IMG/VR virus record: IMGVR_UViG_3300033153_015023
Span: 16,026 to 80,025 of that record
From: a virus
DNA length: 64,000 nt
Strand: one strand, 5' to 3'
Under the pieces are notes generated by a model. It was not told where the DNA came from. It made no database searches and saw nothing but the letters and a program-made list of their open reading frames with translations. Positions 16,719 to 29,406 of this stretch are shown one piece after another. A program made the position numbers and the translations under genes. Every line of letters begins with the position of its first letter. Position 1 is the stretch's first letter.

Positions 16719-17195
16719 ATGAAATTATCTGATAGGCAAAAAATAGCAGCTCGATTGATGGCAGCAGGGGTTTCTCAAGTAAGAATTGCTGAGCGGTTAG
16801 GAGTAGACCCTAATACTGTTCATCTTTGGAGAAAGAAAAAACCTTTTCGTAAAGAATGGGATTTCTGGAGAAGGAAGGGTGTAGAAGTTTTTGAAAAACG
16901 AATGGAACAATTACTTGGGCTTGGAGCAGACAGGGTAACGGATATTTTATTAGATGGTAAAGATAATGATGCACTAACAGCTTTTGATAAAGTTATGAGA
17001 GCTACTGGGAGGTATAAAGACAAGATAATTGTTGAGGAACCTAAGCCGGAGGAGGATCCGATTGAGCAAATCAGAGGCATTGTTAGAGATATCAACGATA
17101 CTCTCGGAATCCCAGATACAAAAGTGGGAGAAGAAGATAGCAAAACTGAAGAAGGCAGGCGACCCAGACAGCTTGATGAAAGCAACTCTAAGTGA
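16719..17195 (+). CDS. HTH protein, probable terminase small subunit
   Basis: LSDRQKIAA.L.A.G.SQ..IAERLGVD.NTV..W; overlaps the terminase large subunit start. Confidence 0.65.
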   Translation: MKLSDRQKIAARLMAAGVSQVRIAERLGVDPNTVHLWRKKKPFRKEWDFWRRKGVEVFEKRMEQLLGLGADRVTDILLDGKDNDALTAFDKVMRATGRYKDKIIVEEPKPEEDPIEQIRGIVRDINDTLGIPDTKVGEEDSKTEEGRRPRQLDESNSK

Positions 17196-18864
17196 AGATA
17201 AATTTAACGAGTTAATAGATTTCCATATAGAGATAAAAAAAGTACATCAAGAAGAGAAAATATTAAAAAGATATGAAACAGATCCGGCTACTTTTATAAA
17301 TAACGAATGTTGGGTTTTCAACCCAGATAAAAGTCCATCTATTCTTAGATTTAAACTATATGATTATCAGAGAGAATTTGTTAAAAAACTATATAAAAAG
17401 TATTTGAACCAAGAAAATATATTGGATGAAAAAACAAGGCAGATGGGATTAAGCTGGTTATACATGGCTTTTTTCTTATGGGGATTACTATTTGATCCAG
17501 GTTTTTCTGGCTTTGTAATGTCATATAAAGAGAAGTTGGTTGATGATGGTGGTTCAGAATCTACAATAGATAGTTTACTTGGCAAACTTAGATTTATGAA
17601 TGATTATCTTGGTAGGGATAGTGAGAGTAAAATCATTAATGAAGATATAAGCAGACTGAGCCAGGAACTTCATTTTAAATATCTTAGAATTAACAATAAA
17701 ACAACTGGTGCATATTTAGTCGGCTCAAGTGCTAATCCTAATGCTGGTAGAGGAGGTAGTTATAGAATAGGTCTTTGGGATGAGACTGCATCTACTCCTA
17801 AATCAGAAATCATCTTTCCTGCGTTTCATCAAGCAGTGAGATGTCAGTGTTTAAATAGTACAGTTAGAGGTAAAGGGAATGTCTTTGCAAGACTTCGACA
17901 CACACCGGATTCCGACTATGAAGTTGTAACACTACACTGGGCTTTGCATCCGGAGAAAGCGGAAGGGATGACGTGGGAGAATGGGAAGCCGACTTCTCCC
18001 TGGTATGAAAAACAATGTCTTGATCTTTCCCCAACACAGGTAGCACAGGAAATTGATATTGATTATGAAGCATCTGTTGAAGGAAGAGTTTACGATAAGT
18101 TTAGTAGATTAGTACATGTAAGAACGCTAGACTTTAATCCAGATTGGAAGAGCAGTTCGATTATTGCTTGGGACTTAGGTGTATCTGATGAGACGTTTGG
18201 TAGTGTAATGCAGATGGATAATCAAGGTAGTATTGGCGTTATAGATGAGATAGTAGGAACAGATGAAGAGATTTCGTTTTATATAGGTTTGATTTGTGGA
18301 GTTGAACCTGCGGAGTTGAAGTTTATGTCTGCGGATAGAAAGAAGATGTATTTAGACTTTTTAACTCGATCTCGAAAGTTTGGATATAGAGATTTGATTC
18401 AAGTTGCAGGACCAGATGCTGTTCAGCGTAGTATAACTTCAAAGAGATCTGTTAGAGATCAGTTTTTGAGAGCCGGTTCGTTAGGAAGAGATTCACAGGG
18501 TAAAATTACTGATCGTCGGTATAGGAACTTAAGGATGATTCCTCTAACTGGCTATAAGATAATGGATCGGATTATTGCTGCAAAGAAGTTGATGAATCCT
18601 CAAAATAATCATTTAGTTATTTCAGATAGATGTGTTAATTTAATAGAACGATTGTTAAACTATAAGTGGACAAAAACAACTGAAGGGATGAATAAAGAGT
18701 CTCCAGAGCATGATTGGGCAAGTCACGGAAGTGACTCATTTGGATATGGAATTTTGTGGTATATGAAACATAGAAGTGTTTTGAGAAAACCATTACTAGG
18801 AGAAACAAGATCAAGGGGGCAAAGGCAGGGAATAATTTCAGTAATGAAGGTAGGTACAAAATAA
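17176..18864 (+). CDS. Terminase large subunit
   Basis: LYDYQ, Walker A EKTRQMGLSW, Walker B GLWDE, coupling NST, nuclease AWDLG and HGSDSFGY; ATG 17176 preferred. Confidence 0.9.
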   Translation: MKATLSEDKFNELIDFHIEIKKVHQEEKILKRYETDPATFINNECWVFNPDKSPSILRFKLYDYQREFVKKLYKKYLNQENILDEKTRQMGLSWLYMAFFLWGLLFDPGFSGFVMSYKEKLVDDGGSESTIDSLLGKLRFMNDYLGRDSESKIINEDISRLSQELHFKYLRINNKTTGAYLVGSSANPNAGRGGSYRIGLWDETASTPKSEIIFPAFHQAVRCQCLNSTVRGKGNVFARLRHTPDSDYEVVTLHWALHPEKAEGMTWENGKPTSPWYEKQCLDLSPTQVAQEIDIDYEASVEGRVYDKFSRLVHVRTLDFNPDWKSSSIIAWDLGVSDETFGSVMQMDNQGSIGVIDEIVGTDEEISFYIGLICGVEPAELKFMSADRKKMYLDFLTRSRKFGYRDLIQVAGPDAVQRSITSKRSVRDQFLRAGSLGRDSQGKITDRRYRNLRMIPLTGYKIMDRIIAAKKLMNPQNNHLVISDRCVNLIERLLNYKWTKTTEGMNKESPEHDWASHGSDSFGYGILWYMKHRSVLRKPLLGETRSRGQRQGIISVMKVGTK

Positions 18865-20346: not shown

Positions 20347-20880
20347 ATGCAGGGTTATTTTATTCATGAAAGTAGTTATATCGACAGCAACGTTGATATT
20401 GGAGATGGTACAAAGATATGGCATTTCTCTCATATTTTAGAGGGAGTGCGAATTGGAAAAAATTGTACTATAGGGCAGAATGTAATGATTGGTCCAGACG
20501 TTGAAATAGGAGATGGATGTAAGATCCAGAACAATGTTTCTATTTATAAAGGAGTTACTTTAGAGGACGGTGTCTTTTGTGGACCATCATGCGTATTTAC
20601 AAATGTTATCAATCCACGGGCTTTCATTGATAGGAGGAGAGAGCTTAAACCGACTCTCGTTAAGACGGGAGCAACTCTCGGAGCTAATTGTACAATTATT
20701 TGCGGCGTTACAATTGGTGAGTATGTAATGGTAGCTGCCGGAGCTGTTGTAACAAAAGACGTTCCTGATTATGCATTGGTTATAGGAGTTCCTGCTCGAA
20801 ATATAGGTTGGGTATCGAAAGAAGGAATAAGAGTAAAGAAAACACCATGTAAACAGGTATTATATAATAGAAGGAGGTAG
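20347..20880 (+). CDS. WbpD/WlbB-like hexapeptide-repeat N-acetyltransferase
   Basis: [38 protein letters not shown]. Confidence 0.9.
20834..20863 (+). promoter_or_regulatory. Promoter-like motif, copy 2
   Basis: TAAAGA-N17-G-TATTAT at the 3' end of the acyltransferase gene, upstream of the RNA region. Confidence 0.7.
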
Positions 20881-21074
20881 AGAGGTTTGAATAGGGATCT
20901 TAAAAAGGTTAGAGAAATTGGAATAATTAGATGGTTGCTGATTTCTCTAACCGAAGGAGAAGCCAATGAAGTAGTGAAAGCTCGCGAGAGTATAAATCAA
21001 GAACTTGTTTTATAGATTAAAGTATTTCGTTGCGGAAAATCGAAAGCAATTTGTAGTGAGATTGTGAGTAGGGT

Positions 21075-21192
21075 AGCAAGGTGGTGGAATTGGTAGACAC
21101 TAAAAAGCGCAAGATGTAGCGACCTTGCGGTGTCCGATTAAGTTACGGTTCGATAAGAAAACGTCTTGCAGGTTCGACTCCTGCCTTTGCTA
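21075..21192 (+). ncRNA. tRNA-Leu-like RNA with a 67-nt central domain and no canonical anticodon arm
   Basis: Acceptor AGCAAGG/CTTTGCT, D arm GTGGAATTGGTAGACAC, T arm GCAGG-TTCGACT-CCTGC, discriminator A, no encoded CCA. Confidence 0.75.
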
Positions 21193-21254
21193 TAGCTTCT
21201 TCTTACAATATAGAGGAAGCAGTTCTCCCGACATCAATTGTTTGAGGAATTTGG

Positions 21255-21414
21255 AGCTGTGAAAGGTATTGGCAGTACCTGGGTAAAGCTTATTCAGCTG
21301 CCACTGAGTAAGTGAGGATCTAATAAAGTGGTCACCTCTACTAGAATTGGAAACTGGAAGAGGAGCTGTTATTGAAGGCAGCGGTTGCCTGTGGTGGTAA
21401 GCAGGCTCACAGTT
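21255..21414 (+). ncRNA. Candidate multi-stem RNA with kissing loops
   Basis: Closing helix CTGTGA/TCACAG, several internal hairpins, loops TGGCAG and CTGCCA exactly complementary. Confidence 0.6.
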
Positions 21415-22054
21415 TTTATTTAGAGGAGAATAAAATGCTTTGCAAATGGTCTCACGGACGCGATGTATATGAGTTTGATGCAAATACGAAAGCAGAAGAA
21501 ATACAGAAGATAAGAGGGCTTGCAAAGGCTCAAGGTTGGAAGTTTAAAGATATGAAGAAGGAAAATAGCAATGAATAAAGGATTAAGAACATATGGGGCC
21601 ATTGTTATCCTCGACGATCGAATAACAGAGCTGGAAACTGAAATGAAACAGGTACTAAAAGAATTTGATGAGGTCGAGAAACAACGCGATGAGTTGCTTG
21701 AGATATGCAGAACAGCGGAAAAGACAGCAATAGAAATACACTCTGGCAGAAGGCATGAAGGCTCTATGCCTTGTGGAATATTGGCAAGAAAACTAGAAGA
21801 CATTATAGGGAAAATAGAGCTTGTTATATAATGTGTAACCACGGTAGGACTATAAATTGTCCAAAATGTAAAGACTACTATGCTTGCTTAGCAGAAGAGA
21901 CGCCAATTGATTGGGATAAGTTTCCACCTGAATTCTGGATTGCTGCACATAGAAGAGTTTTGAGAAGATTAATGCGAAAGCATCCTGGATTCTTTCTTAA
22001 AAGATTTGGTATAATAAGATCGGTTGGAAAGTATGTGCGTGTAGGGAAACCATA

Positions 22055-23661: not shown

Positions 23662-25323
23662 ATGTACGAAAGAAACGACGAACAAGGGATTCGTAAACTC
23701 AATTACTCTCGATATAGGAAACTAGTCGAGAAAGGTTATTCTATTGCAGAGGATACTGCAAATACTTCTCTATACTACATCAACGAGGATCCATTTGGTA
23801 GAACATACTACCAAAAATCTTTAGGTGAGGTAACAATTCGAGATCCTCTTACAGGAAGGATGTATACACAAGAGGAGTGGGCAACAAAGGAATTTATTGT
23901 TGACAATAAAGCACAGTTGGTTGCAAAGGTTAGTGCTGATTTGGTTGTAGGAAAGAGCGTATCTATAAAGTTTAAGGATACAGATAGTCCTAAAGAAGAA
24001 AAAATTGCATGGTTGGAAGAGTTTATAAAATGGAATAAGTTGCGGACTAAACTTTATGAGTCTGCGATGAGAAATAGCGGCTTAGGAGATCAATACTTTG
24101 AGTTAGAAGTTATAGATGATAAGATAAAGGTTATTTATCGGGATCCATACTATGTGGATATAGAGTATGAAAATGACGATGTAAAGTTTTATGAGATTGC
24201 GTGGGAGATTGATGTAGAGAAACCTGTCTCTCGAAGTCTTCTTAAAAAGAAGCGGCAAAAAACTACTTACATTCAAAAGAAGCTTCATTATAAGGGAATG
24301 ATTCGATGGGAGCTATGGGAGAAGAGGAAAAAGGAAATGATCCCAATTCCTCTCAATGAGAATCCAGAAAATGAGGAACTGTTGACGCGTGCTTTGAGCG
24401 AATCGCATATGAAGACGTTATTGGCTCGAGAGTCCGGAGAGGAATATGAAACCGATGATATAAACTATGTATATGTAGTTGAGGAGTATACAGGGATAGA
24501 CACCTTCCTTTTAATTCATTGGCCAAACTATCGAATGTTTGATCTCTTCGGTGTTTCAGATGCCGGTATGATAGAGAATTTACAAAACGCTCTCAATAAC
24601 AGACAGACTCAGCTTCACGACATTCTCGACAAGCATGCAGATCCTCCTATGTATGGTAGTGATTCATATTTAGATGAGAATGGTAATCTGGTAATGACTG
24701 GTGGAGGAGGAAGATACTTTCCAGTTACAGAGGGCGGAGATCCTCCAGGTTATTTAACATGGAATGGGAATATAACTGATTCACAGGATGAAATCAAACG
24801 TCTCTATGAAGCAATTCTTGACAATACAGAAACTTCGCCAGCGCTACTCGGTAGAGACAAAGGTGGCATAGAATCTGGTAGAGCTTTGATGTACAAGTTA
24901 ATCCGATCTCTTGCAATGGCAGCTCGAAAATCTGTGTATATGAAAACAGCAATTAATGAGTTAATTCTAACTGCGCAGAAACTTGAAGAGATTTGGATAG
25001 TTGGTGATGGGATAAAGAGCCTGGATGAAGAGATAAAAACAGAGTGGAGTGATCTTCTTGAAGTAGTGATTGAAATTCAGTCTGCTATTCCAACCGACAC
25101 TCAAGAGATAATTGGTGAAGTTGGGACGTTAGTAGAGAGAGGACTTATTTCAAAGGAAACTGGATTGTTGATTATTGAGAAATATTTTGATGAGATTGAT
25201 CCAGAGACGGAAAAGAAACTACTTGCTGCACAAGAGGATCGGGAAGCGGAATTAGAGAAGAAGAGAATGCCTGATCTGTTAGCAGGTATTCCAGAAGAAA
25301 CAGAACCAGGACTTAATGAATGA
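23662..25323 (+). CDS. Portal protein (SPP1 gp6-like)
   Basis: 553 aa downstream of terL; FGVSD, ILDKHADP, YLTW, ESGRAL, GLISKET. Confidence 0.85.
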   Translation: MYERNDEQGIRKLNYSRYRKLVEKGYSIAEDTANTSLYYINEDPFGRTYYQKSLGEVTIRDPLTGRMYTQEEWATKEFIVDNKAQLVAKVSADLVVGKSVSIKFKDTDSPKEEKIAWLEEFIKWNKLRTKLYESAMRNSGLGDQYFELEVIDDKIKVIYRDPYYVDIEYENDDVKFYEIAWEIDVEKPVSRSLLKKKRQKTTYIQKKLHYKGMIRWELWEKRKKEMIPIPLNENPENEELLTRALSESHMKTLLARESGEEYETDDINYVYVVEEYTGIDTFLLIHWPNYRMFDLFGVSDAGMIENLQNALNNRQTQLHDILDKHADPPMYGSDSYLDENGNLVMTGGGGRYFPVTEGGDPPGYLTWNGNITDSQDEIKRLYEAILDNTETSPALLGRDKGGIESGRALMYKLIRSLAMAARKSVYMKTAINELILTAQKLEEIWIVGDGIKSLDEEIKTEWSDLLEVVIEIQSAIPTDTQEIIGEVGTLVERGLISKETGLLIIEKYFDEIDPETEKKLLAAQEDREAELEKKRMPDLLAGIPEETEPGLNE

Positions 25324-29379: not shown

Positions 29380-29406
29380 AGATAGTAAATAGTATCTTCG
29401 TATTAT
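29377..29406 (+). promoter_or_regulatory. Promoter-like motif, copy 3
   Basis: TAAAGA-N17-G-TATTAT directly after MuF-ART, upstream of two small ORFs and queD-queE-folE. Confidence 0.7.

Follow-up and report, generated by a model that had tools for sequence, protein, structure and literature searches.

What is encoded in a gap of about 420 nt at the entrance of the head-gene operon of an uncultured phage, and by which mode might it act? The gap lies in a window of 64,000 nucleotides (the whole stretch of DNA that was analysed). This 64-kb window was taken from the record of an uncultured virus; the record has 80 kb and direct terminal repeats. All genes near the gap are on the plus strand. 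The large terminase gene (terL) is followed by small genes, a GFO/IDH/MocA oxidoreductase gene, a hexapeptide acetyltransferase gene that ends at 20880, the gap and a 47-aa gene, with more small genes and the portal gene (at 23662) on its 3′ side. Terminase and portal are spaced by 4.8 kb, compared to about 2 kb in related phages with portals that are 50-62% identical. Judged by this larger spacing, the sugar genes, together with the RNA region, have the appearance of an accessory insert. The portal is also 26-27% identical to portals of Firmicutes siphophages, a level that is too low to infer the host.

A preliminary description of this locus had proposed that the gap contains a non-coding multi-helix RNA with two complementary loops, located downstream of a tRNA-like RNA and of a promoter copy. 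The gap size of about 420 nt that it gave agrees with our boundaries (21016-21434), which follow from the finding that 20887-21015 is a genuine conserved ORF. This 42-aa ORF is unannotated in the window. In BLASTP, its counterpart on the metagenome contig L023 (2304-2134, minus strand) showed 43% identity and 71% positives in a gap-free alignment over 42 aa, and contigs from the sequencing runs X1, X2 and X4 also overlie this stretch. A search of the 42-aa ORF against Pfam and PHROG gave no family match.

The promoter copy upstream of the RNA exists as well. The 15-nt motif at 20856 heads a unit of small ORF, tRNA-like gene and RNA, and 14 near-copies of it were found in the window (for example at 29399, 648 and 18890), compared to 4 expected. 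A promoter-like block of 25 nt is identical in L023, where it lies 5′ of the homologous small ORF. It may be a phage-specific (late) promoter. The block (window 20852-20873; L023 approximately 2358-2334) carries the TATAAT box and no −35 element; it is situated within the last codons of the acetyltransferase gene in the window and is intergenic in L023.

Fold, homologs and conserved pairing of the RNA

The minimum free energy (MFE) fold of 21193-21420 on the plus strand has −78.3 kcal/mol, compared to a mean of −62.0 kcal/mol for 200 dinucleotide shuffles, none of which folded as well (z = −3.61). The minus strand folds less well (z = −2.49). In the MFE fold, the hairpin HPa is followed by the helix P0 and then by P1, which closes a junction of six hairpins (HP1-HP6; Table 1). 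Every helix half named in the preliminary description was found in its place, and the MFE fold reproduces the same architecture, including a further hairpin that had been placed at 21195-21220 and that corresponds to HPa. The RNA has a size of about 225 nt (21193-21421, plus strand) and is present as a single copy in the phage genome.

Table 1. Positions of the RNA elements and of neighbouring features in the window
Feature	Position	Strand	Description
Large terminase gene (terL)	17029-18864	+	
Promoter-like motif ('copy 2')	20856-20870	+	15 nt, contains TATAAT box
42-aa small ORF	20887-21015	+	TTG start, GGAGG about 10 nt upstream; outside the RNA
tRNA-Leu-like gene	21075-21192	+	52-nt insertion replaces anticodon arm; directly 5′ of the RNA
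HPa	21195-21220	+	9-bp hairpin, in MFE fold
P0	21221-28 / 21244-51	+	Helix; loop contains conserved 8-nt word 21236-43
P1 5′ strand	21253-62 (core 21257-62)	+	Pairs with 21407-16
HP1	21264-80	+	6-bp stem; loop 21270-74 is one kissing half
HP2	21288-313	+	10-bp stem; 6-nt loop 21298-303 is the other kissing half
HP3	21317-33	+	4-bp stem; loop length varies (window 9 nt, L023 4 nt)
HP4	21335-63	+	5-bp outer helix; inner helix and loop variable
HP5	21365-82	+	6-bp stem, variable loop
HP6	21387-406	+	6-bp stem, invariant 8-nt loop; abuts P1 3′ strand
P1 3′ strand and U run	21407-12 (extended to 21416); U run 21413-21	+	
Shine-Dalgarno and 47-aa gene	21422-29; gene 21435-21578	+	Directly downstream of the RNA

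Homologs of the RNA were obtained by two routes. In the first, contigs of public sequencing runs were aligned to the region, which resulted in three partial copies. Two of these are from the marine run X1, namely rec3, covering 21239-21395, and rec4, covering 21281-21417 and extended to 21252 by a 30-nt overhang. Both sequences were rebuilt from difference tables at a depth of 2-5x, and single differences in them may be errors. The third is a contig of the marine metagenome X5 that is identical over 21376-21429, has a diverged sequence on its upstream side and reaches into a 47-aa gene homolog downstream. In the second route, a 20-mer from the invariant 3′ part led to one metagenome contig, L023, that carries a full copy of the RNA on the minus strand. 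The gene order of L023 is terminase C-terminus, small genes, the 25-nt promoter-like block, the small-ORF homolog, a tRNA-Leu-like gene with a larger insertion, an HNH endonuclease ORF, a 39-aa membrane-type ORF, tRNA-Thr(UGU), the RNA, a 41-aa ORF and the 47-aa homolog. Together with the window, this gives two full copies.

Other searches did not add to this set. A blastn search of the region against 50,697 phage records gave no match, nhmmer and the covariance model R1 found no further copy among 22 related or neighbouring loci, and with R1 the RNA was absent from five whole records of related phages, two of them complete. Scans of IMG/VR, from which records close to the window may have been withheld, with four RNA or tRNA-like patterns and with the alignment of the 47-aa protein also gave no matches. 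Two scans of genome contigs gave no matches and then a single chance match in an Anaerolineaceae coding gene, which was rejected by the R1 covariance model. No RNA was found at the loci that share the acetyltransferase (L001-L006) or the downstream 86-aa gene (L021, L022). The gap beside tRNA-Gln in L017/L018 is not homologous and not significantly structured (z = −1.76). Judged by the copies recovered, the RNA is accessory and rare, and belongs to a narrow lineage that is found in marine and sediment samples. Because only two full copies and some metagenome fragments are available, the evidence is limited at present, and so is the range of readers to whom the RNA is of interest.

To compare the pairing, the window, L023, rec3 and rec4 were cut into matching helix and loop segments, with an alignment that is partly structure-fitted (HP4 inner helix and HP5). 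Substitutions were then permuted among paired bases of the same kind. The 15 substitutions of L023 cause one pair break, compared to 4.7 expected (P = 0.0009), and P values of 0.026 and 0.046 were obtained for rec4 and rec3, respectively. Across the four sequences, both partners of a pair changed in a compensatory way in HP1, HP3, the outer helix of HP4 and the loop-loop pair; approximately 10 further changes are one-sided and keep the pair, and one breaks it. RNAalifold applied to the two full sequences, as aligned by the model, recovered HP1-HP6, and in 9 pairs both bases are changed. Folded on its own, L023 adopts the same plan of HPa, P0 and P1 (z = −2.59), and with P1 enforced its fold is within 0.2 kcal/mol of the optimum. 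Helices and loop complementarity of the preliminary description are hence kept in the homologs by compatible and compensatory changes.

The individual helices differ in how they vary. The HPa sequences of the two phages are unrelated, yet a 9-bp hairpin follows right after the tRNA end in both. P0 is a helix of 9-11 bp in L023, with bases that are changed and still paired. In P1, one G-U pair is A-U in rec4 and L023, and the one break is a G-C pair that became A.C in L023. The third pair of HP1 changes from G-C to A-U in rec4. HP2 has three one-sided changes that keep the pair and no break in its 10 bp in all four sequences. In HP3, the third pair is U-G, U-A or A-U depending on the homolog, and the second pair changes from A-U to G-U. 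The fourth pair of the HP4 outer helix changes from C-G to U-A in L023, in addition to two one-sided changes, and the HP4 inner helix shifts its register between homologs. The HP5 stem is unchanged in rec3, rec4 and X5, the loops of which have 6, 7 and 4 nt, and about 3 bp of it are left in L023. HP6 carries one C-G to U-G change in L023 and is otherwise identical in the window, rec4, X5 and L023. The loops L3, L4 and L5 vary freely and the junction strands are invariant, which argues for a selected RNA fold rather than neutral drift.

Protein coding was ruled out for either strand by 1-nt indels, an unconserved antisense ORF and missing PHROG matches. The homologs differ by indels of 1, 1, 5 and 2 nt, the antisense ORF of 111 aa has no counterpart in L023, and no PHROG match was obtained for the ORFs overlapping the RNA stretch. 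Fold score, indels and lack of a coding signal are all in line with the proposed non-coding multi-helix RNA. A Shine-Dalgarno-like purine run, formed by the P0 3′ strand, is located 10 nt before a GUG at 21259 (window 21244-21315), and this GUG is an AUG in L023 via the same change that breaks the P1 pair. A leader mini-ORF starting at 21259 was rejected, since neither its length (18, 17 or 3 codons) nor its frame is conserved, and it is probably meaningless.

For the family assignment, the whole window was searched by cmscan with the 4227 models of Rfam 15 at gathering thresholds, a set that includes GOLLD, ROOL, pRNA, T-box, riboswitches, ribozymes, RNase P, tmRNA, 6S and SRP. No match was found. 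With a cutoff of E ≤ 10, 20850-21480 gave only the neighbouring tRNA-like gene and two chance matches of 14-17 bits, compared to thresholds of 50-75 bits, and the L023 copy had no Rfam match at E ≤ 1. The preliminary description could not place the RNA in a known class, and the search agrees with this. It had also drawn a parallel to GOLLD, ROOL and pRNA; kinship with these RNAs is not supported, because their models are unmatched and the sizes differ. Resemblances to T-box, RNase P, SRP and hammerhead RNAs seen by eye were rejected as unsupported by any model. Taken from two full and three partial copies, with an A.C mismatch in P1 and a nearly lost HP5 in L023 as limits of the case, our data make it highly probable that 21193-21421 (plus strand) is a real conserved structured RNA of an uncatalogued family.

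The word GGUAA occurs in unpaired parts of the RNA, twice in the window (21281-87 and 21393-400) and three times in L023, compared to 0.3 expected. The 9-mer of the HP6 loop is also found inside the tRNA-like gene of L023 (L023 positions 2082 and 1149). GGUAA could be a shared protein-binding word, or a coincidence.

tRNA-type genes on the 5′ side

The tRNA-Leu-like gene scored 30.8 bits with the Rfam tRNA model (E = 2e-4), and ARAGORN called no tRNA for it. Homologs are present in L023 (2127-1915, minus strand) and in run X4, and the acceptor stems covary. By this comparison, the tRNA-like gene is a maintained RNA in its own right. Acceptor pair 4 is A-U in the window and G-C in L023, and the stem of X4 is different and fully paired. 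The inserts differ greatly, with 52 extra nt in the window compared to about 140 nt in L023, where a stem of 5 bp with a loop of 6 nt is added. Over 91 nt, a stretch that takes in the odd insert, one contig of X4 (depth 49) differs at only 3 positions.

In the window, HPa starts 3 nt past the discriminator base of the tRNA-like gene and is on the same strand. In L023, the RNA starts about 5 nt past a true tRNA-Thr(UGU) gene (1417-1344, 65.5 bits), likewise on the same strand, and the tRNA-like gene is located about 530 nt upstream of the RNA, with the HNH endonuclease gene and the small membrane-protein ORF in between. Both full copies are therefore positioned as a tRNA trailer is, following a tRNA-shaped gene at its 3′ side with the same orientation and probably within one transcription unit. 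The proposed position of the RNA, next to tRNA-type genes and 3′ of the promoter-like motif, holds in the window and in L023. The proposal that it is one RNA with the tRNA-like domain is not supported, since in L023 the RNA adjoins a genuine tRNA-Thr and the tRNA-like gene lies apart; RNA and tRNA-like gene are separable modules. The two are probably co-transcribed. The presence of a tRNA-shaped element directly 5′ in both full copies suggests that tRNA 3′ processing makes the 5′ end of the RNA.

The HNH_3 endonuclease ORF of L023 (1905-1591, minus strand) directly follows the tRNA-like gene, and its end overlaps a second, imperfect tRNA-like 3′ end that consists of T-arm and acceptor strand (L023 1612-1590). 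From this arrangement, ORF and partial tRNA-like copy look like the footprint of a homing-endonuclease insertion.

The 3′ end and the loop-loop contact

The P1 3′ strand lies directly before the U run (five U, one A, three U), and the Shine-Dalgarno sequence starts 1 nt after it. P1 3′ strand and U run are invariant in every homolog that reaches this part. Within 21383-21430 (HP6, P1 3′ strand, U run and RBS), one base differs between the window and L023 and the X5 sequence is identical; outside this stretch, window and L023 share about 80% identity in the RNA. A simple hairpin scan calls no terminator at the 3′ end of the RNA because the stem is long-range, with the partner strand 145 nt upstream. 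HP6 is separated from the U run by 6 nt. In a terminator scan of 12-32 kb, hairpin terminators were no commoner than in shuffles.

The protein of the downstream 47-aa gene has homologs with 94% (P0001), 76% (P0002) and 59% identity. A homolog of the gene is found downstream of the RNA in all three loci where this could be seen (window, X5 and L023); X5 has the same RNA-gene junction, and in L023 the 41-aa ORF intervenes. No family match was obtained for the 47-aa protein, and its AlphaFold model (pLDDT 79) gave no PDB fold match at E ≤ 0.001. The near-invariant 3′ end would fit either a terminator-like end with partial read-through or the expression platform of a cis-acting leader.

The two loop words at 21270-75 and 21298-303 are exact complements, as had been proposed. 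The first word is not wholly a loop, since its last base (21275) already belongs to the 3′ strand of the HP1 stem, which starts with it. As U21270 is also paired with A21274 in the MFE fold, 3 nt of loop (21271-73) remain. When the loops are shuffled, any two of the six show Watson-Crick complementarity over at least 6 bases in approximately 4% of cases, and on one sequence the match is thus only mildly significant. In L023, the HP1 loop is 1 nt shorter and has a G to A change, and the HP2 loop has CC changed to UU. All loop pairs are kept in L023, with one G-C pair replaced by A-U (a double change) and one by G-U. The calculated energy of the loop duplex is −8.6 kcal/mol in the window and −4.1 kcal/mol in L023. 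Two loops with covarying complementarity, the hallmark looked for with phi29-type pRNA in mind, are thereby seen from a single homolog. The CC to UU change equally keeps a 4-bp pairing with the invariant HP6 loop, and only the G to A change is specific to HP1-HP2. As one compensatory event in one homolog, the loop covariation is supportive, not decisive. HP1 and HP2 are neighbours joined by 7 nt, which makes an intramolecular kiss the simplest reading; the loops, complementary over 4-6 bases, would most simply kiss within the molecule and compact its 5′ half.

Possible modes of action

We tentatively prefer the reading that the locus gives rise to a stable RNA that is matured from a tRNA transcript and ended at P1 and the U run, and that would be a new, rare and accessory phage RNA. 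Transcription would start from the promoter-like motif at 20856, jointly with the small ORF and the tRNA-like gene. A cut of the RNase Z type, trimming the 3′ side of the upstream tRNA-shaped RNA, would make the 5′ end, and with such a 5′ end the RNA would be a tRNA 3′ trailer. HP6 and P1 with the U run would form an intrinsic-terminator-like 3′ end, resulting in a discrete, stable RNA, and some polymerases would pass this end and go on to transcribe the 47-aa gene and the portal/head operon. The invariant single-stranded parts (junction 21281-87, HP6 loop and P0 loop) might be the contact surface for a protein or RNA partner.

Similar arrangements are known. The stable RNAs species 1 and 2 of phage T4 (rnaC, rnaD) are encoded in the T4 tRNA gene cluster. 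Like the RNA described here, they are structured non-coding phage RNAs (120-225 nt) on the same strand directly beside tRNA genes, presumably cut from a common precursor. Unlike them, the RNA described here has a P1-closed six-hairpin junction with kissing loops, and its processing and stability are predicted ones. Among the tRNA 3′ external transcribed spacer RNAs, 3′ETS-leuZ of E. coli reportedly (Lalaouna et al. 2015) is a little structured RNA of about 50 nt that acts as an sRNA sponge. It shares with our RNA the start right after a tRNA or tRNA-like 3′ end, a release that for our RNA is predicted to occur by tRNA 3′ processing, and a terminator-like stem with a U run; in contrast, our RNA has about 225 nt, a complex conserved fold and no known complementary partner.

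It is distinctly improbable that the region has no dedicated function and is a decaying spacer or terminator region, or an old tRNA-gene remnant, with a similarity that reflects recent common descent. The very few homologs, which are all from marine samples and 80-95% alike, would agree with such a remnant, as would the related phages without the RNA, the tendency of AU-rich phage spacers to yield hairpins and the loop complementarity, which alone is expected by chance in about 4% of cases. However, the substitutions avoid pair breaks (P = 0.0009 for L023), there are four double compensatory changes, HPa keeps its 9-bp hairpin with a wholly different sequence, and L3-L5 vary while the junction strands are invariant, a pattern that already disfavoured this reading. 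A more serious alternative, possible although on balance unlikely, is that the RNA acts in cis on the 47-aa gene and the portal/head operon, as a leader or attenuator of a riboswitch-like or protein-controlled type. The P1-closed junction with the kissing HP1 and HP2 would then be the sensor domain; in the folded or bound state, P1 would stop transcription at the U run or mask the translation start, and otherwise polymerases would read through. P1 abuts the U run, the Shine-Dalgarno sequence follows 1 nt later and there is no promoter-sized gap before the next gene. The 48 nt at the 3′ end are almost invariant through the RBS, which suits an expression platform no less than it suits a free RNA. 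The 47-aa gene homolog is downstream in the window, X5 and L023, and the long late operon is headed by this element, which itself follows a conserved promoter-like motif. Closure of a junction by P1 and a kiss between two loops also make up the classic layout of the purine aptamer, which the RNA resembles in that P1 closes the domain, two adjacent hairpins have complementary loops, and a U run and an RBS follow. On the other hand, it has six hairpins instead of two, the purine and other riboswitch models are unmatched, the genes downstream include no conserved one of the ligand type, and an alternative pairing that could act as antiterminator is not evident. Moreover, the immediate downstream ORF differs in L023, where the 41-aa ORF comes first, the downstream genes encode small unknown proteins and virion proteins rather than the transporters and metabolic enzymes that riboswitches usually control, and related phages run the same operon without the RNA. 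The element also sits in a tRNA-type transcription unit, for which the precedent is free stable RNAs.

Pairing of the HP1 and HP2 loops between molecules could instead assemble the RNA into a dimer or ring with a role in the virion or in packaging, which we regard as very improbable. The loop words are exact complements in the window and are still complementary in L023, with the duplex energies given above, the gene lies between terL and portal, and natural RNA-only multimers formed through kissing loops are documented for phage-associated RNAs (PMC12286853). Against this, HP1 and HP2 are adjacent with a linker of only 7 nt, so that a kiss within one molecule is favoured. The large terminase and the portal of the phage are of the conventional type, and the Rfam models of pRNA, GOLLD and ROOL are unmatched. 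The RNA is missing from related phages that share the packaging genes, including two complete genomes, and this speaks against a core or essential part in packaging. Least probable of all is that a self-assembling RNA serves as an accessory head or packaging component beside the conventional terminase; if true, this would be a combination not previously described. GOLLD and ROOL are often found near tRNAs and pRNA is linked to packaging (Rfam; PMC12286853). Like these three, our RNA is a phage-encoded structured RNA with covarying loop-loop complementarity. However, it matches none of their models, and its 225 nt are far below the size of ROOL (about 580 nt) and GOLLD (about 800 nt). The phage packages with a normal terminase and has close relatives without the RNA, and a kiss between molecules would be hypothetical here.

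Phages keep yielding structured RNAs beside tRNA genes, from T4 species 1 and 2 to GOLLD and ROOL. The present RNA is located at the entrance of the head-gene operon, beside a tRNA-Leu look-alike without anticodon arm. With about 225 nt it is small enough for direct structural and genetic work, and it offers a clear domain plan and a testable tertiary contact. As a stable RNA, which is the reading we prefer, it would be a new family among the tRNA-trailer RNAs, and might serve as a partner of the tRNA-like RNA. If it were an attenuator, it would represent RNA-based gating of late genes.

Two further observations concern the surrounding junction. In the 86-aa gene, two genes downstream of the RNA, the stretch 21611-21785 of the window is 96% identical at the nucleotide level to 3014-3188 of L021/L022, which are otherwise unrelated IMG/VR contigs; the shared 175 nt form a mosaic module with sharp boundaries. 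Ordinary tRNA genes (Gln and Glu) are found in related phages between terminase and portal (L017/L018 3211-3283 and L011 1643-1716), and RNA genes in general seem to land at this junction.
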